A stretch of DNA of 64,000 nt, taken from assembly GCF_030384885.1 (NCBI RefSeq), contig NZ_CP128613.1; one strand, 5' to 3'. Below the pieces are notes generated by a model. That model did no database searches, was not told where the DNA came from, and saw only the letters and a program-made list of their open reading frames with translations. Shown here one piece after another: positions 10,537 through 29,726 of the stretch (position 1 is its first letter; every line of letters begins with the position of its first letter). Origin of the DNA: Escherichia coli (GTDB lineage Bacteria > Pseudomonadota > Gammaproteobacteria > Enterobacterales > Enterobacteriaceae). Position numbers and translations under genes: made by a program.

Positions 10537-10860
10537 TGAATAAATCATCACTAATTCTATAAGTGTCTGGTCTTATTAAGAATATAGTTAATATGCAACC
10601 CTTTAGATTCACGATCTGAAGGGTTGAAACATGGCATACGTTCAAAGATTAACCCCCGTTTGAAGGTTAGCCTGTTAGTTACATTTAGTAACACATATCT
10701 GTCTGCTTAATCCCCATTCTGCCCCCGCGGTTACGCTTTCTTATCTATTCTTTCAATCAGCACTTCACCTAATTCATCCTTAATTCTAATAACTGGCTAT
10801 TGCGCCTTACCTCCTGTTTTGTCTTTTTTTCATTACCAATGTGTACATGTGAGGAACAAT

Positions 10861-12249
10861 ATGGCACTGCAAAATGAGAAAAATAGTCGTTATCTTTTGC
10901 GCGACTGGAAACCAGAAAACCCGGCCTTCTGGGAAAATAAAGGAAAGCATATTGCACGAAGAAACCTCTGGATATCAGTCAGTTGTCTACTTCTTGCCTT
11001 CTGTGTCTGGATGCTATTTAGCGCAGTTACTGTTAATCTCAATAAAATCGGTTTTAATTTCACTACCGATCAACTCTTTTTATTAACCGCATTACCCTCC
11101 GTTTCTGGCGCATTATTGCGTGTCCCCTACTCCTTTATGGTGCCTATATTTGGTGGACGCCGATGGACGGTTTTTAGTACTGCAATCCTGATTATTCCTT
11201 GCGTCTGGCTCGGAATTGCCGTGCAGAATACGAATACTCCTTTTGGGATATTTATCGTTATCGCTTTGCTATGCGGTTTTGCAGGTGCGAACTTTGCTTC
11301 GAGCATGGGCAATATCAGTTTCTTCTTCCCAAAAGCCAAACAAGGGAGCGCACTTGGGATTAATGGCGGATTAGGAAACTTAGGTGTAAGTGTGATGCAG
11401 CTGGTTGCGCCGCTGGTGATTTTTATCCCCGTATTTGCCTTTCTCGGCGTCAATGGCGTACCACAGGCCGACGGTTCGGTAATGTCGCTGGCGAATGCCG
11501 CATGGATTTGGGTGCCATTACTGGCGATTGCCACTATTGCCGCCTGGTTAGGGATGAATGATATCGCCAGTTCACGCGCGTCAATAGCCGATCAATTGCC
11601 TGTATTACAACGTCTGCATCTCTGGCTGCTCAGTCTTCTCTATCTCGCCACCTTCGGTTCGTTTATCGGTTTTTCTGCGGGTTTTGCCATGCTGGCGAAA
11701 ACCCAGTTCCCGGATGTGAATATTCTGCGTCTGGCGTTCTTTGGCCCATTTATCGGTGCCATCGCGCGGTCGGTTGGTGGTGCTATTTCCGATAAATTTG
11801 GCGGCGTGCGGGTGACGTTGATCAACTTCATTTTTATGGCGATTTTCAGCGCCCTGCTGTTCCTTACCTTACCGGGCACAGGCTCTGGTAATTTCATCGC
11901 ATTTTACGCCGTCTTTATGGGGCTGTTTCTGACCGCGGGTCTGGGAAGTGGTTCTACTTTCCAGATGATCGCCGTCATCTTTCGCCAGATAACGATTTAT
12001 CGCGTCAAGATGAAAGGCGGCAGCGATGAACAGGCTCAGCGGGAAGCGGTCACCGAAACGGCGGCAGCATTGGGCTTTATCTCAGCGATTGGCGCAGTTG
12101 GCGGCTTTTTTATTCCGCAGGCGTTTGGCATGTCGCTCAATATGACCGGCTCGCCGGTAGGTGCGATGAAAGTGTTTTTGATCTTCTACATCGTTTGTGT
12201 GCTGCTGACCTGGCTGGTTTATGGTCGGCGGAAGTTCAGCCAAAAATAA
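10861..12249 (+). CDS. narU: Nitrate/nitrite transporter (MFS, NarK family), 462 aa
   Basis: Starts MALQNEKNSRYLLRDWKPENPAFW with SD gagga upstream; the longer ORF-track start at 10819 is rejected. Confidence 0.9.
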   Translation: MALQNEKNSRYLLRDWKPENPAFWENKGKHIARRNLWISVSCLLLAFCVWMLFSAVTVNLNKIGFNFTTDQLFLLTALPSVSGALLRVPYSFMVPIFGGRRWTVFSTAILIIPCVWLGIAVQNTNTPFGIFIVIALLCGFAGANFASSMGNISFFFPKAKQGSALGINGGLGNLGVSVMQLVAPLVIFIPVFAFLGVNGVPQADGSVMSLANAAWIWVPLLAIATIAAWLGMNDIASSRASIADQLPVLQRLHLWLLSLLYLATFGSFIGFSAGFAMLAKTQFPDVNILRLAFFGPFIGAIARSVGGAISDKFGGVRVTLINFIFMAIFSALLFLTLPGTGSGNFIAFYAVFMGLFLTAGLGSGSTFQMIAVIFRQITIYRVKMKGGSDEQAQREAVTETAAALGFISAIGAVGGFFIPQAFGMSLNMTGSPVGAMKVFLIFYIVCVLLTWLVYGRRKFSQK

Positions 12250-12254
12250 GAGAT

Positions 12255-12310
12255 TGATGCCTGACGCGTCTTATCAGTCTTACAACCGTGTCGCATCCGA
12301 TAAGGCATCA
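12255..12310. repeat. REP-like palindromic element in the narU-narZ intergenic region
   Basis: tgatgcctgacgcgtcttatcag ... ccgataaggcatca inverted repeat of the REP type. Confidence 0.4.
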
Positions 12311-12344
12311 GATCCCAAATCATTCCTGGAGCAGGAGTTATGTT

Positions 12345-15300
12345 ATGAGTAAACTTTTGGACCGCTTTCGCTACTTCAAACAAAAGGGCGAAACATTTGC
12401 CGATGGTCACGGCCAGGTGATGCATAGCAACCGCGACTGGGAGGACAGCTATCGCCAGCGTTGGCAGTTCGACAAAATCGTGCGTTCCACTCACGGCGTT
12501 AACTGTACAGGCTCCTGTAGCTGGAAAATCTACGTTAAAAATGGCCTGGTGACCTGGGAAATCCAACAGACCGACTACCCGCGCACTCGCCCTGACCTGC
12601 CCAATCATGAACCTCGCGGCTGCCCGCGTGGCGCAAGTTACTCCTGGTATCTTTACAGCGCTAACCGCCTGAAATACCCGCTCATTCGTAAACGACTGAT
12701 TGAACTGTGGCGCGAAGCCCTCAAGAAACACAGCGATCCGGTACTGGCGTGGGCATCGATTATGAACGATCCGCAAAAGTGCCTGAGCTACAAACAAGTG
12801 CGTGGGCGTGGCGGCTTTATCCGCTCCAACTGGCAGGAGCTAAACCAGTTGATTGCCGCCGCTAACGTCTGGACCATCAAAACTTACGGTCCTGATCGCG
12901 TTGCCGGTTTCTCGCCGATTCCGGCGATGTCGATGGTTTCTTACGCCGCCGGAACACGCTATCTGTCGCTGTTAGGTGGCACCTGTTTAAGTTTCTATGA
13001 CTGGTATTGCGACCTGCCGCCTGCCTCGCCGATGACCTGGGGCGAGCAAACCGACGTGCCAGAATCTGCCGACTGGTATAACTCCAGCTATATCATCGCC
13101 TGGGGTTCTAACGTACCGCAAACGCGCACACCAGACGCCCACTTCTTTACCGAAGTACGTTACAAAGGTACCAAAACTATCGCCATTACCCCGGACTACT
13201 CTGAAGTAGCCAAATTGTGCGACCAGTGGCTGGCACCGAAACAAGGCACTGATAGCGCCCTGGCGATGGCAATGGGCCATGTGATTTTAAAAGAGTTCCA
13301 TCTCGATAATTCCAGCGACTATTTTATCAACTACTGCCGCCGCTACAGCGACATGCCGATGCTGGTAATGCTGGAACCTCGCGACGATGGTAGCTACGTT
13401 CCCGGGCGCATGATCCGCGCGTCTGACCTGGTAGATGGGCTGGGCGAAAGCAACAATCCGCAGTGGAAAACCGTAGCAGTTAATACAGCAGGTGAACTGG
13501 TGGTGCCGAACGGTTCGATTGGTTTTCGCTGGGGAGAAAAAGGCAAATGGAATCTGGAATCCATTGCCGCCGGTACGGAAACCGAATTGTCGTTAACTCT
13601 GCTCGGTCAACATGATGCCGTTGCAGGCGTGGCCTTCCCCTACTTTGGCGGCATTGAAAATCCGCATTTTCGCAGCGTAAAACACAATCCGGTCCTGGTG
13701 CGCCAATTGCCCGTTAAAAACCTGACATTAGCCGATGGCAACACCTGTCCGGTCGTCAGCGTTTATGATCTGGTACTGGCAAATTACGGCCTCGATCGCG
13801 GGCTGGAAGATGAAAACAGCGCGAAAGATTACGCTGAAATCAAACCTTACACCCCAGCCTGGGGCGAGCAAATTACCGGCGTACCGCGCCAGTACATTGA
13901 AACCATCGCCCGCGAATTTGCCGATACCGCCCATAAAACGCATGGGCGCTCGATGATTATCCTCGGTGCTGGCGTCAACCATTGGTATCACATGGACATG
14001 AACTACCGTGGGATGATCAACATGCTGATCTTCTGCGGTTGTGTCGGGCAAAGCGGTGGCGGCTGGGCACACTATGTCGGTCAGGAAAAACTGCGCCCGC
14101 AAACCGGCTGGCTGCCTCTGGCCTTTGCACTCGACTGGAACCGACCACCGCGCCAGATGAACAGCACCTCGTTTTTCTACAATCACTCCAGTCAATGGCG
14201 CTATGAAAAAGTCTCTGCTCAGGAGTTACTTTCACCGCTCGCCGATGCCAGTAAGTACAGCGGTCATCTGATTGATTTCAACGTTCGCGCCGAACGTATG
14301 GGCTGGCTACCTTCTGCGCCGCAACTGGGGCGTAACCCGCTCGGGATTAAAGCTGAAGCCGACAAGGCCGGATTATCCCCCACAGAATTAACCGCCCAGG
14401 CGCTGAAATCGGGCGATTTACGCATGGCCTGCGAACAACCCGATAGCGGCAGCAATCATCCGCGTAATTTGTTTGTCTGGCGCTCTAACCTGCTTGGCTC
14501 CTCCGGCAAAGGCCACGAATATATGCAGAAGTATCTGCTGGGAACCGAAAGTGGGATTCAGGGTGAGGAACTCGGTGCCAGCGACGGGATCAAACCAGAA
14601 GAAGTCGAGTGGCAAACTGCGGCGATTGAAGGCAAGCTCGACCTGCTGGTGACGCTCGACTTCCGTATGTCCAGTACCTGCCTGTTCTCCGATATCGTTC
14701 TGCCCACCGCCACCTGGTACGAAAAAGACGATATGAATACCTCAGATATGCATCCGTTTATTCATCCACTTTCTGCGGCGGTCGATCCGGCGTGGGAATC
14801 ACGCAGCGACTGGGAAATCTACAAAGGTATTGCCAAAGCATTTTCGCAAGTGTGCGTAGGGCATCTTGGCAAAGAAACCGACGTGGTATTACAACCCCTA
14901 CTGCATGACTCTCCGGCAGAACTCTCCCAGCCGTGTGAAGTGCTCGACTGGCGCAAAGGCGAATGCGATCTGATCCCGGGTAAAACCGCGCCCAATATTG
15001 TAGCGGTGGAACGCGACTACCCTGCTACCTATGATCGCTTTACCTCGCTCGGGCCATTGATGGACAAACTTGGCAACGGCGGTAAAGGGATTTCGTGGAA
15101 TACCCAGGATGAAATCGATTTCCTCGGCAAACTCAATTACACCAAGCGTGATGGCCCGGCACAGGGGCGACCGCTGATTGACACCGCCATTGATGCATCA
15201 GAAGTGATACTGGCGCTGGCACCGGAAACCAACGGTCATGTTGCAGTCAAAGCGTGGCAGGCGCTGGGCGAGATCACCGGACGCGAACATACCCATCTGG

Positions 15301-21086: not shown

Positions 21087-21656
21087 GTGAGCCGATTCAT
21101 CCCTGTCGAATTACACCATGCCAGCCGTCTGTTAAATCATGGCCCCACAGTTTTGATAACCAGTTTCGATGATAAATCTCAGCGACGTAATGTGATGGCT
21201 GCGGCCTGGTCGATGCCGGTAGAGTTTGAACCGCCACGTGTGGCGATAGTGGTAGATAAATCGACATGGACCAGGGAGTTGATTGAGCGTAACGGTAAAT
21301 TTGGCATCGTTATCCCGGGCGTTGCGGCGACTAACTGGACGTGGGCGGTGGGAAGTGTGTCGGGTCGTGAAGAAGATAAATTTAATTGCTATGGCATTCC
21401 GGTTGTGAAAGGTCCGGTGCTTGGATTGCCGCTGATTGAAGAAAAATGTCTGGCATGGATGGAGTGTCGATTGCTACCAGCGACTTCTGCGCAAGAAAAA
21501 TACGATACGCTATTTGGCGAAGTGGTATCGGCAGCGGCAGACGCACGAGTATTTGTCGAAGGCCGCTGGCAGTTTGATGATGACAAACTCAATACACTAC
21601 ATCATTTAGGTGCTGGCACGTTTGTTACCAGCGGCAAGCGAGTCACCGCGGGCTAA
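21087..21656 (+). CDS. yddH: Flavin reductase-like domain protein, 189 aa, GTG start
   Basis: Sequence and neighbourhood match. Confidence 0.8.
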   Translation: MSRFIPVELHHASRLLNHGPTVLITSFDDKSQRRNVMAAAWSMPVEFEPPRVAIVVDKSTWTRELIERNGKFGIVIPGVAATNWTWAVGSVSGREEDKFNCYGIPVVKGPVLGLPLIEEKCLAWMECRLLPATSAQEKYDTLFGEVVSAAADARVFVEGRWQFDDDKLNTLHHLGAGTFVTSGKRVTAG

Positions 21657-21721
21657 AGAATCATATGCAGCAACCAAGTTGCTTAAGCAATTTTCCATAT
21701 GAGTTAAAAACATATTTTATC

Positions 21722-21922
21722 TCACGATTGCATATTTTTAGTGAAGATTAATTTATCCTCACCAACATCATAGTAATTGCGTATTATCGCCTCATTGATA
21801 AAGCCCTGTTTTGTATAAAATGCGCGGGCGGCACTAAAATCGACATGGCTGGAGGTCTCTACTAAAAGTAGTCTTGCGTGATTGGGACAAGTCAAGAAAA
21901 AGCAGTTTTGCAGTTTTTTATT
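21722..21922 (-). pseudogene. C-terminal remnant of a GNAT-family acetyltransferase (about 66 codons, no credible start)
   Basis: Hand translation of the minus strand gives ...ARLLLVETSSHVDFSAARAFYTKQGFINEAIIRNYYDVGEDKLIFTKNMQS*, bounded upstream by an in-frame TGA; GNAT motif-B-like (FYTKQGF). Confidence 0.4.
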
Positions 21923-22047
21923 TCAGGGCACAGTTGCGAAAATTGAATACCGTATGGACTAATGTGAGAAAATTCCGAGGTATGACTGTTTTGATATAGT
22001 GGACAATCAAGCGTCTCGAATTAACAATGAATTTCAGGTGCCAAGCC

Positions 22048-22683
22048 TTACAATTTGTAGCATGACGGATATAGGACAACATTAGGAAATCGGACAGAAA
22101 ATTCATTATAATAAAATGACAACTTATCTCTTTCTCTCACGTTCTGTGAAATTTCACAAAAGTATAAACTGAGCCAATATGCCTTTATATATAAAAAATA
22201 CTCATGTTTATTATTATCGGAAAAAGCCAAGATTTGATTAAGGCCATCAAAAATATCTTTCTCATGATCTATATGTACTCTTGATGATTTTACAATATCT
22301 TTTAATTCGCGGTAAATCTTATTAAATAGCGCAACCGATTCACTGTTATTGAATCCATAGTTGATAAAAAGACATGATTTAACATCCGATATTAGTAAGT
22401 CGTCATAATCTATCTCAATTCCACACAATTTCACGATATACTCAGCTATAGTATTACTTTGCAAGGACTCAACAACTGACAGTAAAACAGATGGATGCAA
22501 TAATATTTCAAGAAGACTTCTGTCGATATTTTTATACACATTTATTGCAAATTCATCACTCGTCCCATCGATGATGTCAGATATTAAAAAAAATACATAC
22601 TCGGGGAGTTCATACCACATATTAATTTTAATAATATCACGACACATATCTTCTAACTGTTGTAATCTATTACCTTTATTCAT
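22048..22683 (-). CDS. Hypothetical protein, 211 aa, AT-rich, no recognisable domain
   Basis: Clean ORF directly downstream of, and co-oriented with, the ISAs1 transposase; acidic soluble protein; occupies the position where K-12 has pptA (from memory). Confidence 0.55.
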   Translation of the reverse strand: MNKGNRLQQLEDMCRDIIKINMWYELPEYVFFLISDIIDGTSDEFAINVYKNIDRSLLEILLHPSVLLSVVESLQSNTIAEYIVKLCGIEIDYDDLLISDVKSCLFINYGFNNSESVALFNKIYRELKDIVKSSRVHIDHEKDIFDGLNQILAFSDNNKHEYFLYIKAYWLSLYFCEISQNVRERDKLSFYYNEFSVRFPNVVLYPSCYKL

Positions 22684-22839
22684 AACAACCTTAATATTAT
22701 ATGGAATCTTTGGCGGAATCTTCTTACTCCGCGGAATTTTACTAAAGCTTTGTTAGATAAAATATGCGTATCACTGACAGCATGTTATTAATTCACTCTG
22801 GTGTTATTTGACAAAAATACCCCCTCCTGTTTTCACCTC

Positions 22840-24135
22840 TTTGTATTTATGATAATTAAGGGGGGGTGCTAATTTAATATAAACACCCAGGGCAAGATTA
22901 CGAAAGCCCGCTCCCCGCAAGGACTGACGCCAGGTAGTTTCTGTCCATGGCTGCTTTTCGCATCTTACGCCTTAACCCTGCCCTGGATACCTTATCATTC
23001 GTCAAAATATTAATAGCAATGTGCCGTATCCCTGAAAATAATTCTGCTGCGTTTCCTCTTCTTATTTTGCTGTCGTCTTCATTCATTACCACGTCCAGAC
23101 GCCAGTGCAGCTTATTCTCCATGTGCCAGTGGTTTCGGATTGCTGTGGCGAACTTCTCTGCGGTTAAATCAGCAGAACTGATATAATATCTGACCGTCAT
23201 TTCTGGCTCTTTCTTTTGTTCTGCTATTATTGACCGAAAGGAGACTGCCACGCATAATTTCTTCAGACCTTTCCATTCAAACGTGAAATCAATAAGTTCA
23301 TCAGGGACATCGCAAACAATGTGAAGACGGATTTCTTCTCTGCCGTGACTCTTTTCACTCATTGCGTAACTGTCATGCTCTGGATTATTTAATTCTTTCA
23401 GCGGAAATTTTTCCTCGAAGGCTTTATTTAGCCGCCCCTGGTTTCCTTTTACAGCGAATAAATAATCACCTCCCTGTTTTTGTATCTTCTCTGCAATATC
23501 TTTCTGGCAACCCATCGCATCAGTTGTGATGATTTTTTCTTTAATATCCAGCATGTTAAGAAGTTCTGGGATAGCAGTAATCTCATTGGATTTCTCATCC
23601 GTCTTGATCTGTCCGATGACCAGACTGTGCATTGTTGAGAACGCACTAATGACATGAATCGCTCCCCTGCGGCGACTCTTGTCATAAGAGTGCCGGAGCG
23701 TTTTTCCATCAATTGCAATGACGCCTTTATCATCTGAAGAATGGCAGTCACGCATCCAGTTAATAAAGCACTCGTGAAATTTTGCAGGACTGATACAGGA
23801 TACAACTCTGGCAATCGTATCGTGAACAGGAATACCATTTTCAAAATCACCATATTGCTTCAAAAAATCGAGATGTGTTTCCCAAAAATCCTCTATATCT
23901 TCCCAACCTTCTGCACCCGAAATAACGGCGCAAATAGTCAACAGTAGAATATCCGATAATTTATGCTCCACTTTCCAGGCTTGTCTGTAATCGGGGATAA
24001 TAGAAATATGTTCCATCAATTTTTTAAGTACCATTTTGTTCTCCTTAATTATGTAAGGAGTATTTGATCATGTATAAGCAATAAAAAACAGCTTCAGGTA
24101 ATGAGGAATATCTCAATTTTTAAACATAAAATGCG
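22840..24135 (-). mobile_element. ISAs1-family insertion sequence (H-repeat element); ends approximate
   Basis: Contains the 378-aa H-repeat transposase; element ends not mapped. Confidence 0.45.
22898..24034 (-). CDS. ISAs1-family (H-repeat-associated) transposase, 378 aa
   Basis: Characteristic sequence [32 protein letters not shown]...[20 protein letters not shown]. Confidence 0.85.
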
Positions 24136-24203
24136 AATTGTTTAGTACAAAAAAGCAGCGTTAAGTGAGTAGGCCACCGGAACCTCCCCGACAGCCTCTC
24201 GCA

Positions 24204-24237
24204 GAACCGTACGTGAAACTCTCGCTTCATACGGCTC
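24204..24237 (-). other. Group II intron domain V (catalytic hairpin)
   Basis: GAGCCGUAUGAAGCGAGAGUUUCACGUACGGUUC: 10-bp stem GAGCCGUAUG/CGUACGGUUC with G-U pairs and the AGC triad. Confidence 0.8.
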
Positions 24238-24240
24238 CCG

Positions 24241-25758
24241 TCAGGCAAACGCGCTTCCTGGTCCTGCTTTCCAGTGGGCAAACAACTCCGGCTTCTCTTT
24301 TGACAGCCTTTCCATTAGCTGACACGCCTTCGTCTTTCTATACCGCAGGGTTTTATATTTCTTTCTCGCCCACGCAATCAGCGTCAGATTAATATATCTG
24401 CATACTTTCTTCATCGCTGATTTGTGGTATCTCGCGTAATAATTCAGCCACCCCGATATTATCGGATTCAGCCACTTCGCAATATCTTCGAGACTCATCT
24501 CCACCCTGCGTCTGATCCACAGTTTCCTGAGTTTTCCAATCATGCCTTTCTGCGCAAGGTTACTCGCCGCCGGGCTGAAACTCGTAAAGAGGTTTCCCCG
24601 CCGGTGGTTGCGTGCTCTTCGCGCTCTGAACGTATACCCCAGAAAATCAAACTGCACTGTTTCATGGTTCGCCTGTCGTTCGCTGTCTTTGCAGTAAACT
24701 ATTTTCGTTTTCTCCGGATGTAATTCCAGTCCACATTCCTGAAAACGTTTTGCCAGCTTATTCAGTAATTCCTCTGCCTGTTGTTTACTGCCACAATGAA
24801 TTAATCCATCATCTGCATAACGGCACCAGGGAATTTCCGGATAATGTAACGTCAGCCATTTATCAAACACATAGTGCAGAAATAAATTCGCCAGTACCGG
24901 GCTGATGACTCCACCCTGTGGCGTACCTTTATTTCTTTCCTTCAGTGTTCCATCCGGCATCTGCACCGGCGCTGTCAGCCACCGGCGAATAGACAGTCTT
25001 ACCCATTTATCCGCACAATGTTTATCTACTGCCCTGAGTAATAAATCGTGGGGGATATTATCGAATAACCCTTTAATATCAAACTCAAGACACCAGTCGT
25101 ATTGCCAGCAACGTTTTCTGGTGACTGCTATTGCATCCAGCGCTGATTTTCCATGCCGGTATCCGTATGAATCATTCAGGAAATAACGCTCCACTAATGG
25201 TTCAAACGTTACCAGCACCGTCATCTGCGCTATTCGATCGCTTACTGTCGGTATTCCTAAAAGTCTTTTGCTGCCATCCTTCTTCGGAATTTCCACCGCA
25301 CGCACTGGCGGCGGCATCCAGCTTCCCGACGATAACCTGTTCCAGATTTTGTACAGATTTCCTTTCAGATCCCGCTCAAAATCTTTCAGCGTCTGGTTAT
25401 CCACTCCGGCAGCTCCGGCATTCGCCTTTATCCGCCGGTACGCTTCCACCACATGCAATTTACTGACCTGAAACGGTTTTGTCTGTTCACACACAGCCTC
25501 CTCCTGCCTACAGTTGGGCTGTGATGCAGACTGCCCGACGCTGTCCCTTCGCTCCACGTTCATTACAAACGCTTCCTCACTACTACGAACAGCTCTGCCC
25601 CGGTTTCGCACATCGATACTCTCATACTCATAATTTCGGTTATTTGTATTTCTCTCTTGACATTGCGACGACCGGTTCCCGTAGTTCCTGCAAAGAGCCC
25701 GATACAGCGTCATGCCTGCTATACACCGGACACCATTCACGCAGCATTCGGAATTCAC
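24241..25758 (-). CDS. Group II intron reverse transcriptase/maturase (no obvious endonuclease domain); true start probably internal
   Basis: RT motifs including KANAGAAGVDNQTL, GTPQGGVISPVLANLFL and the YADD box (CRYADDGLIHC), then maturase X (PIISGWLNYYARY); no HNH Cys/His pattern at the C-terminus. Confidence 0.8.
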   Translation of the reverse strand: MNSECCVNGVRCIAGMTLYRALCRNYGNRSSQCQERNTNNRNYEYESIDVRNRGRAVRSSEEAFVMNVERRDSVGQSASQPNCRQEEAVCEQTKPFQVSKLHVVEAYRRIKANAGAAGVDNQTLKDFERDLKGNLYKIWNRLSSGSWMPPPVRAVEIPKKDGSKRLLGIPTVSDRIAQMTVLVTFEPLVERYFLNDSYGYRHGKSALDAIAVTRKRCWQYDWCLEFDIKGLFDNIPHDLLLRAVDKHCADKWVRLSIRRWLTAPVQMPDGTLKERNKGTPQGGVISPVLANLFLHYVFDKWLTLHYPEIPWCRYADDGLIHCGSKQQAEELLNKLAKRFQECGLELHPEKTKIVYCKDSERQANHETVQFDFLGYTFRARRARNHRRGNLFTSFSPAASNLAQKGMIGKLRKLWIRRRVEMSLEDIAKWLNPIISGWLNYYARYHKSAMKKVCRYINLTLIAWARKKYKTLRYRKTKACQLMERLSKEKPELFAHWKAGPGSAFA

Positions 25759-26050
25759 CCGTAAATTAATCCCGGCGGTATCATGAAACCTCCGGTTTTG
25801 ATGTCACTTAGGACTAACGACGTTTCAACACAGGTTCGGGTTTACTCATCTCACTGTATCTCACATAGGATCAGATCTCGTCTGATCGTTCCCCCTGCGC
25901 TCACTACCATGGCTCTTTACCACAGCAGCCGGGGTTGTTTGGGACCGACTTCCGACAGCAGATCCCGGTGGGCCTGCCACCATCTCTTCACAAGCTTATG
26001 CTTATTACATGCAAAACGTCCCGTTTTGCATCTTTGTGCCTACGGCACAC

Positions 26051-26201: not shown

Positions 26202-26600
26202 TCAATATCCTAACGCTGGTCTTTTGCCTGTATTAACTGATTTAGCTGGTTTGCTACATATTAATGCCTTCAGATTTTCCCTTTCCTTGTCTGTGATACT
26301 GTCGCAAACCCTACTAGCCCATTCTACTTCACTCTTCTCCAGGCATTCTATTTTCTTATTGCTCATTGTTCTAATGTTTGGTGTTGCATCTCCATTTAAT
26401 AACATCCATGTTTCATTTTTCTTCATAAAACATCTTCCATTATGTTCAAAGATATTAGGTGTGAATATATTATCAGAATCCCATGTTACGACTTGCTCGA
26501 GGGCTATATTATCTTGATAGTCCATGCCAGCATTATAATAATCACAAGATATAATTATCATGGAAATAATTATCACTAATATCTTCCCAAGCATTTCCAT
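26202..26600 (-). CDS. Putative Rhs immunity protein, lipoprotein-like, 132 aa
   Basis: ATG directly abuts the Rhs stop (TAAATG); N-terminal signal with lipobox-like IIISC; AT-rich; the corresponding K-12 gene would be ydcD. Confidence 0.6.
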   Translation of the reverse strand: MEMLGKILVIIISMIIISCDYYNAGMDYQDNIALEQVVTWDSDNIFTPNIFEHNGRCFMKKNETWMLLNGDATPNIRTMSNKKIECLEKSEVEWASRVCDSITDKERENLKALICSKPAKSVNTGKRPALGY

Positions 26601-28314
26601 TTACTTTACCTCTTGAAATTCAAATGGGAATCCAGTGAAAGGACCTTTAGGCATAATATATCTTTGATATCCATAAAGCTCACCGAGCACTTGTAGGCTT
26701 ATAGGCGCATTTGTATTCATAGAGGGGTTGTTAAACCCGCACGCCTCAAAAATCATGTTCGTTCGGCTAAAACAATTATTTAAAACAGGAAGAGGCCCGA
26801 GGTTAATAGTTTTTAGTTTTTTATTAAGGTCTATTGCCTTATTCATCATACATTGTTCTTCTTCATCTGTTGTATCTATTATCCAAATCCAGGTATCTCT
26901 GCGGGGTTGCATCTTTTTAAAATAATCAGAGACAGAGGCTCCCATCTCATCCCCAGTTCCCGAACTCATTAATCCATATCGATTTGCCGCCGCAGCATGC
27001 CCAAAAGGATTATCAGGAACGGGGCCGTTACCTATTATCATAGTACTAAGCCCTAATGGATCAACGTGTTGCACTGGATTCAGCGGATATTGGTACAGAT
27101 TCCATCCCCCCTTCAGCCCAATCGGGTCCTGGATGATATACCTCCCCTGCAACGGATCGTAGTACCGGTTCCGGTTATAGTACAGCCCTGATTCCTCATC
27201 ATGCTGCTGCCCCGGCAGACGGTATGGCTGGTGCAGGTGATGCGGATTCTCCTCATTCAGCAGGTTGCCCCATTCATCATATTCCGCGCTCCACACCGTT
27301 TTGCCGTCTTCGCTGATGAGCGCCAGCGGCAGGCCCCGGTGGTCGCAGTGGTAAAGATGAACTTTTCGCGCCGGTGTGTATTCCGGCTCCACCTGTCTGG
27401 CCAGTTGCTCCACCGTCAGCCCGCACTGCGCAAGCCACGCCCGGCTTTCACTGCTCACGCGGTCTGCCCGGATTTCTTCCTCCAGTCTGTCCAGCAGCCG
27501 CACCAGTTCAGCCGGAAATACCACACCATGACCGTCCTCGCTCCCTTCCTGCTGTAACTTCTCCGCCAGGCTCCGGCGCTGCGCTTTCTCCAGTTCGGTC
27601 ACGTCTGTTTCGATGCGGATGAGCGGTGTGAAGCTTCCCGGCTCGTATACCGTCTGGATACGCGTGGTGTCGGTCTGTACCGTCGCCAGCCTGTCGCCGT
27701 CCCACCCGTACCACGTTACCTCCGGTTTACGCGACAGCGACATCCACCCCGTCAGGTCACGTACCCGCCGCCACACCCGTTTCCCCGTCCGGCGGCCCAG
27801 CGGGTCGTAGAGGTAGCGGCTCTCGACCAGTGGCTCGCCATGCTGTATCCGCGTGTAGAACACCAGGCGGTGCTGGCTGTCGTAGTGGTAGTGGTGGGTC
27901 CGCTCGTCGTCCGTCCGTATCACACCCGCCGGGATGCGGTCCGTCTTCTCCGTCAGCCTGCCGTATTCATCGTGGCGGTACCAGTGCATCATCGCGTATC
28001 TGTAAGCGGATATCAGAAGGCGCTTTCCAGCCGGGGCCAAAAATCCCCACAGGCGCAGGCGTCTTCGTCCGGTAGCTGCTGTAGGTGCGGGAGAGAATGA
28101 ACGGCAGCGGGCCGGGCAGCGCAAGGTCCGTCTCGCCGGGCAGCACCTTCGCCCCCAGCAGCGGATTTACCGGGTTGCCCGAAGTCATCCCGCCCGGACA
28201 CACCGAGCACGCCACGCCGGTGGGCGCGCCAATTCTTACACCTGCCGAACCCTGGACAATGGGACCGCCATACTGAGTCATATCTCCCTGACGCGCCGCT
28301 GGTTTTCCGCTCAT
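26601..28314 (-). pseudogene. rhsE: Rhs element E core gene, internally deleted/frameshifted: PAAR N-terminus joined out of frame to the 3' core plus C-terminal toxin tip
   Basis: ORF 27967-28314 encodes the Rhs N-terminus MSGKPAARQGDMTQYGGPIVQGSAGVRIGAPTGVACSVCPGG; ORF 26601-28124, in another frame, encodes the core end through DPIGL/DPLGL and a ~150-aa tip. Confidence 0.75.
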
Positions 28315-28380
28315 GATTCAATTCCTTCTTCTGTTTATTTTTAATGCTTGTTTGTTACTGAATACCGAACAGGTACGGGA

Positions 28381-29013
28381 TCAGTACTCTCTCATATCCG
28401 GCGTATCCTGCTTTTCATCAGGGGTCTTCGGTGGGGATTTCGAGGCTGCACAGTTCCAGTTAATCAACAGTGAGTCACCATTAACCTGCTCCTTACCCTG
28501 CAAATGAATTTTTGTGCCGTTGAGAAAAATTTGTCCGTCCTTAGTCAGCACCAGCCTTGCCTTACCACAGCAGAGTTCCAGATGCTCACCGGCGGAGTAA
28601 ATCGCGGTCTGCCCGGTATCATCCTTTTTCGTTTTACCAACGGTGAAGGTAACGTTATTTCCGACTTTGACGTCATAACCCAGCCCGACCATCAACGACT
28701 TATGCAAACCGATCTGCGAGGACTGCATCAGGGCCACCGAGGTGTTCATAATGCCACCTACCGTCGTCTGATACGCCACGCCCACGGTCAGCGCACGAAC
28801 AAGTCCAATCGTTTCCACCTGAACAGAGCCCACTTTAATGATCTGGTTACTGCCCACCGTCTCTATCTGGTTAACACCCACCGTCTGTATCTGATTGTTG
28901 GTAACCGCAATCATCTGATTGTTGCCGATGGTCTCAGCATGGTTGTTTATCACATCCGTGGTGCGGTTATTCAGCACCTCGGTACCGCCCCACCCTGATA
29001 ACATGATCTGCAC
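28381..29013 (-). pseudogene. VgrG C-terminal fragment (gp5-like beta-helix repeats), 5'-truncated
   Basis: 8-residue periodic repeats (NQMIAVTNNQIQTVGVNQIETVGSNQIIKVGSVQVETIG); no N-terminal VgrG domains upstream. Confidence 0.55.
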
Positions 29014-29438
29014 ATTGCCATCTTAACGTCGTTAAACACTGGCTTAATAGTGGATATTTCAAATTAGGAATTTATTAAATTCACCTGATGAATATCATAA
29101 GCAAATAGCATAGAAAATAATGACAACTCCCCCGAGGGGACCATTTCCAAAGCACTGCACCACCACCTGGTGCCCGGATGATCTTGCTTCAGTGGTAAGA
29201 GTACCTGATTCATTGTTCCCAAAATGGTGTTTTCCCCTGCCCCTGCAATAACGTGCAGCTCTCACGTGATAATCTATTGATTAGGTTATATTAAGAATCA
29301 ATATTTGAAATACATCCATTTTCTTGAATAAATCAACATATTTATTTATCAATTGCTGTTTTAGCTCTGACTCATCAAACTCTCCATATTTTTCCTACAG
29401 ATAATCGCGAATAAATACAGAGAACGCCATTTATCCTT

Positions 29439-29651
29439 TTAGCATACCTGCCGGATATTTTTATTTGTATTAATATTAATTGCATCTCCAACTCCGAGCA
29501 TATCCATCATTAAAGACATTTTGAGATTATAGAATGCCTGTGATAACAACTGAAACATCTGCACAATGTGAATAGTTAGTTTCTTTTCAGAGGAAATGAA
29601 ATAGACAAGCTGAATGAAAGAGAGAGTGATATAAATTAAAAAACATAACAT
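29439..29651 (-). CDS. Small hypothetical protein, 70 aa, AT-rich (position of K-12 yncH)
   Basis: 70-aa ORF in the yncG-rhsE interval; no motif recognised. Confidence 0.35.
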   Translation of the reverse strand: MLCFLIYITLSFIQLVYFISSEKKLTIHIVQMFQLLSQAFYNLKMSLMMDMLGVGDAININTNKNIRQVC

Positions 29652-29726
29652 GAATCTAATTAATTACGTCCATCATTGTGGATAAAGTTACTGAATAATA
29701 AATAACATAATCTTCTGGTATCCCAC

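Follow-up and report, generated by a model that had tools for sequence, protein, structure and literature searches.

A toxin-less putative immunity gene of an EndoU-linked family beside yddH in Escherichia coli

The stretch analysed in this work (the window) comprises 64,000 nucleotides of the Escherichia coli contig NZ_CP128613.1 (assembly GCF_030384885.1), and its subject is an open reading frame (ORF) of 211 amino acids (aa), very probably an orphan immunity gene, together with the DNA around it. The backbone genes narZYWV, yddE, nhoA and yddH run from left to right up to position 21656; yddH (a flavin reductase gene, 21087-21656, plus strand) is the last of the conserved genes, and its stop codon is the exact end of the homology to K-12, which is interrupted from 21657 onward and restarts at an ISAs1-family element of the ydcC/H-repeat type (22886-24153, minus strand; transposase gene 22898-24034). 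Between them are four minus-strand features: the 3′ remnant left by a RimI-like GNAT acetyltransferase gene (21722-21883), which keeps approximately 53 terminal codons and the stop and has no start codon; a spacer (21884-22047); the 211-aa ORF (22048-22683), which starts with ATG; and 202 bp of native upstream sequence kept before the end of the insertion sequence (IS) (22684-22885). The G+C content is 0.30-0.32 over the ORF (31%) versus 0.50-0.56 in the backbone, and the ORF and the transposase gene have the same orientation.

In K-12 the same chromosomal site is arranged ydcC (ISAs1)-pptA-yddH, with the same flanking backbone and an ISAs1 element 97% identical to that of the window; it differs in having pptA where the window has the GNAT remnant and the putative orphan immunity gene. 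A tblastn search with PptA over the whole 64-kb window gave no match, and pptA occupies the site in 4078 of the 5426 complete E. coli genomes that made up the collection used for all E. coli counts. An initial annotation made from the sequence alone had described the absence of a detectable pptA between yddH and ISAs1, an AT-rich 211-aa ORF without known motifs co-oriented with the transposase, and a start-less GNAT 3′ fragment; the coordinates, base composition, domain searches and genome comparisons bore out all three.

The 211-aa ORF is intact and under purifying selection. Its homologues, 26-100% identical, its conserved residues, its substitution pattern and a confident structural model identify it as a real gene and not a chance reading frame. 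An alignment of ten family members (25-94% identical to the window protein) contained 19 invariant and 20 nearly invariant positions, and the window allele has every one of the 19. The ratio of nonsynonymous to synonymous substitution rates (dN/dS) between the E. coli allele and those of Escherichia albertii, Pseudocitrobacter and Shigella flexneri was 0.26-0.30 (dS 0.76-1.3), and it was lower than 1 in all the comparisons made. A Shine-Dalgarno-like AAGG motif (22689-22692, minus strand), 5 nt from the ATG, is kept in the E. albertii and Pseudocitrobacter loci.

The product is predicted to be a small cytoplasmic protein without a catalytic domain. The AlphaFold2 model was all-alpha, a compact fold of twelve helices, the longest not exceeding 24 residues (mean pLDDT 89.6, pTM 0.87). 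The window protein and the ten family members gave no match in Pfam; the window protein also gave none in NCBIfam, no PADLOC family at E≤1 and nothing significant in PHROGs. No PDB sequence was matched by phmmer with the 211-aa protein or by the family profile over all PDB chains, and Foldseek comparison of the model with the PDB gave no match below E 0.6. Against AFDB50, Foldseek returned family members only, such as B4ETQ3 from Proteus mirabilis HI4320 (TM 0.90). The isoelectric point (pI) of the window protein is 4.87; values for the family were 4.65-5.12 in nine of ten members and 5.80 in the tenth.

The family is small: a set of 5.8 billion proteins contained 16 clusters of it, and one of 1.84 billion contained 13 representatives. 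The named members belong to E. coli, E. albertii, S. flexneri and Pseudocitrobacter, to which the AlphaFold database adds Proteus, Xenorhabdus and Superficieibacter; the other members come from metagenomes and further assemblies.

Outside E. coli, the genes of the family stand directly behind toxin modules. In Pseudocitrobacter, a homologue with 63% identity to the window protein is encoded 16 bp downstream of an ORF with the EndoU_bacteria domain (PF14436), in the same orientation in three independent assemblies, within a cluster that also carries DUF2169 and Tox-PAAR-like genes. A more distant member (P0024, 35% identical) follows, at a distance of 14 bp, an orphan module of 214 aa composed of Pyocin_S (residues 8-61) and EndoU_bacteria (residues 98-210, i-E 1e-14); the two belong to a VgrG-DUF4123 effector array in which a Colicin_D toxin paired with its Colicin_immun protein and more orphan cassettes of the pyocin-S type are also present. 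The most divergent of these homologues (P0025, 26%, from metagenomes) is separated by 9 bp from an upstream EndoU_bacteria ORF adjoining Rhs fragments. In S. flexneri (52%), the family gene follows, after 16 bp, an 88-aa ORF that corresponds to the C-terminal two-thirds of an EndoU toxin and shares 72% identity with the toxin from Pseudocitrobacter. No toxin ORF is present in E. albertii, but a decayed 3′ remnant of one survives there: the 120 bp upstream of the family gene can be aligned with the last part of the Pseudocitrobacter toxin gene, at its 3′ end (score 123, versus approximately 20 for unrelated pairs).

The reverse search, started from the toxin domain, returned 347 PF14436 proteins, and genomic contexts were inspected for two of the closest toxin matches (L022 and L023). 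At L022, from P. mirabilis, a toxin module fused to a Rhs core overlaps by 4 bp with the next gene, which encodes a family member of 203 aa that has 35% identity to the window protein; at L023 a frameshifted family member, approximately 51% identical, lies 16 bp beyond the toxin gene. Both toxin genes are thus followed by a family member, and the reverse search recovers the family again. The more distant toxin homologues were mostly Firmicutes proteins of approximately 160 aa, and since the immunity family has just 13 representatives these cannot have a partner from it, so that the family follows one gammaproteobacterial clade of the toxin.

In total, a toxin or its remnant lay immediately upstream of the family gene in 7 of 9 locus types (toxin gene in L018-L020, L012-L015, L009-L011, L022 and L023; remnant in L021 and L016), with either a 4-bp overlap or a gap of 9-16 bp, and the toxins were of Rhs, PAAR-linked or pyocin-S type. 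The family is therefore a genetically linked partner of the EndoU_bacteria toxin carried by effectors of the type VI secretion (T6SS) kind. The pI was 9.3-9.8 in three of the four partner toxins examined, as opposed to the acidic values of the family, and such acid-base pairing is the usual pattern in nuclease/immunity pairs. A toxin was lacking from two locus types, that at yddH in E. coli and one downstream of flgN. In one assembly with the latter arrangement (GCA_014697735.1; L008, 8001-9206) the annotated protein has 401 aa and extends beyond the family domain by roughly 110-140 aa at its C-terminus; its true start probably follows the first 66 or so residues, and no EndoU toxin is close by. 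The Pseudocitrobacter EndoU gene (L018-L020, 3235-4400) is split by an identical frameshift in the three independent assemblies, and at L023 (5932-6939) there is an in-frame stop in the toxin gene and a frameshift in the immunity gene.

The E. coli copy has no such neighbour. Searches by tblastn with six toxin sequences gave no match in the loci of the window, 042, LP5-1, EC42405, PCP07014 or CFT073, and Smith-Waterman alignment of the upstream DNA of three E. coli variants with the toxin-linked loci scored no better than shuffled controls. Toxin-coding DNA had no match in the 5426 complete E. coli genomes in a nucleotide-level search, which a divergent toxin could escape, and none of the top toxin-domain matches was named as an E. 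coli protein. As no EndoU toxin or remnant occurs upstream of the ORF or elsewhere in the window, the window copy is classed as an orphan. The window does contain a 5′-truncated rhs C-terminal ORF of 507 codons that resembles K-12 rhsE (26601-28124), which matched neither PF14436 nor any other Pfam family; it is followed by its own small rhs-associated ORF (132 aa, 26202-26600), so that the 211-aa protein is not the immunity protein for that rhs toxin.

The region was matched in 660 of the 5426 genomes and the ORF itself (at least 80% query coverage) in 193 (about 3.6%), always on the chromosome and always beside yddH; the only match in a plasmid collection was to a 4.9-Mb record, evidently a chromosome. 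The listed carriers, approximately 190, represent many lineages and hosts, and nearly all of them have an intact ORF annotated as a coding sequence. Among complete genomes the nearest is that of 2013C-4282, which shows 100% identity over 21657-22897, is otherwise near-identical, and has a full vgrG and a 1406-aa Rhs beside it, about 4.4 kb more than the window, in which there is only an rhs fragment without vgrG (26601-28124 and 28125-29700).

Homologues directly behind EndoU modules in several unrelated settings, together with a window copy that has no toxin, lead to the assignment of the 211-aa ORF, which we regard as very probable, as an orphan member of an immunity family cognate to EndoU RNase toxins. 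Of the three possibilities raised in the initial annotation for this protein (orphan immunity, toxin or defence), the first agrees with the EndoU-linked relatives and the missing toxin, and the other two found no support in the PADLOC result or in the lack of an enzymatic domain. In producer cells, the immunity gene would be expressed from the same operon as the toxin, directly after the toxin module (the C-terminus of a Rhs, PAAR-linked or pyocin-S-type T6SS effector). The acidic helical protein would form a one-to-one cytoplasmic complex with the toxin domain, which is usually basic, and stop it from cutting RNA; such binding and neutralization by members of the family is presumed. The toxin is missing from the window and from all other E. 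coli examined, which makes the gene an orphan at the tail of the yncH-rhs/ISAs1 hotspot next to yddH. If the ORF is expressed in the window strain, its product would neutralize some toxin allele, and protection would be limited to incoming EndoU toxins of matching specificity delivered by competitors.

The DNA upstream of the ORF has been shortened to different extents in different strains. In E. coli 042 the order is an ISAs1 remnant, 811 bp (L002, 10235-11045) containing a further orphan ORF of 186 aa, probably another orphan immunity gene, and then the 211-aa ORF. In the window the ISAs1 element adjoins the upstream region of the ORF, the 811 bp still carried by 042 having been removed, and the same IS end stands 202 bp upstream of the ORF (22886/22887). 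In PCP07014 the IS end lies at the position equivalent to 22297 of the window (L005, 7641/7642), and the 5′ 60% of the ORF is gone. The same ISAs1 end at three points in three strains indicates, from these sequence comparisons, nested IS-adjacent deletions, that is, a stepwise erosion from the IS side.

This erosion bears on the best surviving alternative, in which the ORF is a functionless relic that has lost its toxin, is not expressed, is drifting towards loss and confers no protection. Its presence in just 193 genomes, its truncation by the ISAs1 end in PCP07014, the decay of the GNAT gene next door and the deletion of 811 bp beside the IS in the window would all fit a relic. So would the promoter and terminator scan of the remaining 202 bp, which found no sigma-70-like site on the ORF strand and counts not above those of shuffled controls, and the dN/dS within E. 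coli (0.24-0.47), which was calculated from only 3-18 substitutions of each class and would allow for relaxed selection. Nevertheless, the ORF is intact in nearly all its carriers, 19 of 19 family-invariant residues are retained, no comparison gave a dN/dS of 1 or more and the Shine-Dalgarno-like motif is conserved; moreover, orphan immunity genes of other systems are reported to be protective. A relic is therefore considered rather unlikely. Decay in relatives, which the initial annotation had named as evidence against a function, was found in part: the ORF is truncated in PCP07014 and missing from approximately 420 genomes, and it is intact in almost all of the approximately 190 carriers.

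Several of these observations also weigh against a working orphan immunity gene, namely the uncertain expression, for which transcription by read-through from ISAs1 is a possible source, and the scarce substitutions within the species. To them must be added that the ORF is eroded or absent in most E. coli, including about 420 CFT073-like genomes without it; that the nearest toxin-linked allele is only 63% identical to the E. coli allele, immunity being usually allele-specific, and that the cognate toxin of the E. coli allele may be extinct or as yet unsequenced; and that several of the partner toxins are themselves broken. A literature search returned nothing on the family and no experiment on any member. 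Finally, an AlphaFold2 model of the L012 pair as a single toxin-(G4S)6-immunity chain, made with 38 alignment rows, gave two well folded halves (pLDDT 89, pTM 0.58) and no support for an interface between them.

The GNAT remnant was traced by comparison with E. coli LP5-1. In the open stretch at 21722-21895 (174 nt, minus strand), the last 53 or so codons match the C-terminus of RimI-type acetyltransferases (TIGR01575, E 2e-4); at the DNA level they are 96% identical to the 3′ end of a GNAT gene of 155 aa that is intact in LP5-1 and is also RimI-like (TIGR01575, E 5e-8). Positions 21881-22887 of the window match LP5-1 (L004) 9692-10694 at 92.6%, the spacer between the stop of the ORF and the deletion junction being homologous to the DNA just 3′ of the ORF in LP5-1. 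Compared with LP5-1, 463 bp are missing from the window (junction at 21881-21883), a deletion that removed approximately 102 N-terminal codons of the GNAT, and the remnant at 21722-21883 lacks the complete acetyl-CoA-binding fold in an intact ORF. The intact GNAT segment was found in 17 of the complete genomes. CFT073-like genomes retain the GNAT region at full length, in the form of an unannotated pseudogene that is interrupted by a premature stop near codon 72 and by a frameshift (L006, 7067-7594); the 221-227-bp matches to the window end where they do because of the 463-bp deletion in the window, and the description of these genomes as having only a GNAT stub was ruled out. RefSeq annotates the region in CFT073 only as a 72-aa hypothetical protein. 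Judged from these sequences, the GNAT has been lost repeatedly and independently.

The initial annotation suggested a search for intact GNAT toxin/antitoxin pairs in other genomes; in a reading of this sort the ORF would be the surviving partner of a former functional pair, such as a GNAT toxin and its antitoxin. Where the GNAT is intact, in 17 genomes, the two genes are indeed neighbours in the same orientation. Functional pairing is very improbable, however: in LP5-1 the genes are 292 bp apart with the ORF upstream, which is not the spacing of a tight operon; the GNAT resembles RimI and not the toxins of TacT/AtaT type; there is no GNAT neighbour at the Pseudocitrobacter, E. albertii, Proteus or metagenome homologues; and the GNAT was inactivated independently, by deletion in the window and by nonsense mutation plus frameshift in CFT073, with the ORF of the window intact. 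The GNAT is an unrelated, decaying neighbour of the 211-aa ORF, and in the window it was destroyed by the 463-bp deletion. Neither vgrG nor rhs occurs at the site in the 17 genomes that have the GNAT intact. In these genomes a run of small ORFs of 72-153 aa lies between yncG/ansP and a 220-aa allele of the ORF (L004 of LP5-1, 10847-12609; L025, 5181-6544), which looks like a poly-immunity islet.

That the protein is an enzyme or an anti-phage defence protein, as the label “aminopeptidase” in some NCBI and UniRef records of family members and the AT-rich, IS-flanked, island-like setting might suggest, is highly improbable, since there is no peptidase or other Pfam or NCBIfam domain in any member, no conserved metal-binding motif in the family alignment, nothing significant in PADLOC or PHROGs, and only a non-significant likeness to the helical C-terminal domain of an M1 aminopeptidase (PDB 8sw0, E 1.4, TM 0.27); the name is unfounded.

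The 211-aa ORF, taken as an orphan immunity gene, was compared with known systems. CdiI-STECO31 (PDB 5HKQ), functionally the nearest analogue, is the immunity protein of the E. coli EndoU-fold tRNase CdiA-CT-STECO31 (PMC9086364). It likewise neutralizes an antibacterial RNase toxin of the EndoU type, and its gene comes immediately behind the toxin module (PMC9086364), but it is a mixed alpha/beta protein (PMC9086364), in contrast to the predicted all-alpha fold of the 211-aa family. There was no sequence similarity between them (phmmer, and the family profile against PDB chains) and no match in either fold search of the PDB; its partner toxin is delivered by contact-dependent inhibition (CDI, type V secretion), whereas the toxins of the 211-aa family are on Rhs/T6SS modules. 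Zhang et al. (2012) tied three immunity families to Tox-EndoU: SUKH/SMI1_KNR4, Imm-SuFu and Imm28 (PMC3482391). The organization is shared, with a polymorphic toxin C-terminal module followed by an immunity gene and with poly-immunity or orphan arrays (PMC3482391), but the Pfam models of those families match no member of the 211-aa family, which therefore lies outside that catalogue as represented in Pfam.

The orphan immunity genes and acquired interbacterial defence clusters of gut Bacteroidales and Vibrio cholerae offer a further parallel. They are reported also to place a toxin-less immunity gene in a recombination and IS hotspot by T6SS effector islands, and by analogy protection against attack by non-kin would be expected here. 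E. coli differs in having a single gene (a short array in 042 and LP5-1) and no mobile multi-gene cluster, and no matching toxin is known among E. coli.

Two other features were recorded near the ORF. A group II intron (24164-25981; Rfam RF00029 at 24164-24239 and RF01999 at 25864-25981) lies between the ISAs1 element and the 132-aa ORF and contains an intact-looking reverse transcriptase/maturase ORF (24241-25758, minus strand); it was the sole match in the Rfam scan. A 24-nt inverted repeat, 79% complementary (21702-21725 and 22752-22775), flanks the GNAT remnant and the ORF, and is probably due to chance.

The family described here is an undescribed immunity family of a familiar kind, and does not amount to a novel type of system. 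At the ends of Rhs/VgrG islands, orphan immunity genes are to be expected, and the term “strong candidate for an uncharacterised function” used in the initial annotation was too strong with respect to the kind of function, which is ordinary. The work adds a family to those serving EndoU toxins, absent from Pfam and NCBIfam and without a structural relative, and documents the erosion of the yddH-rhs hotspot through nested IS-adjacent deletions. It also provides a testable function for entries now named “hypothetical protein” or “aminopeptidase” in approximately 190 complete genomes of E. coli, as well as in Proteus, Xenorhabdus, Pseudocitrobacter, E. albertii and Shigella. More tentatively, the family could represent a structurally new all-alpha immunity fold for the gammaproteobacterial EndoU clade, kept without its weapon by approximately 3.6% of E. 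coli as an acquired defence against the Rhs-EndoU effectors of co-resident Enterobacterales. If that were true, with P. mirabilis in the gut or urinary tract as an example of such a competitor, the gene would constitute a case of cross-genus orphan immunity in E. coli.

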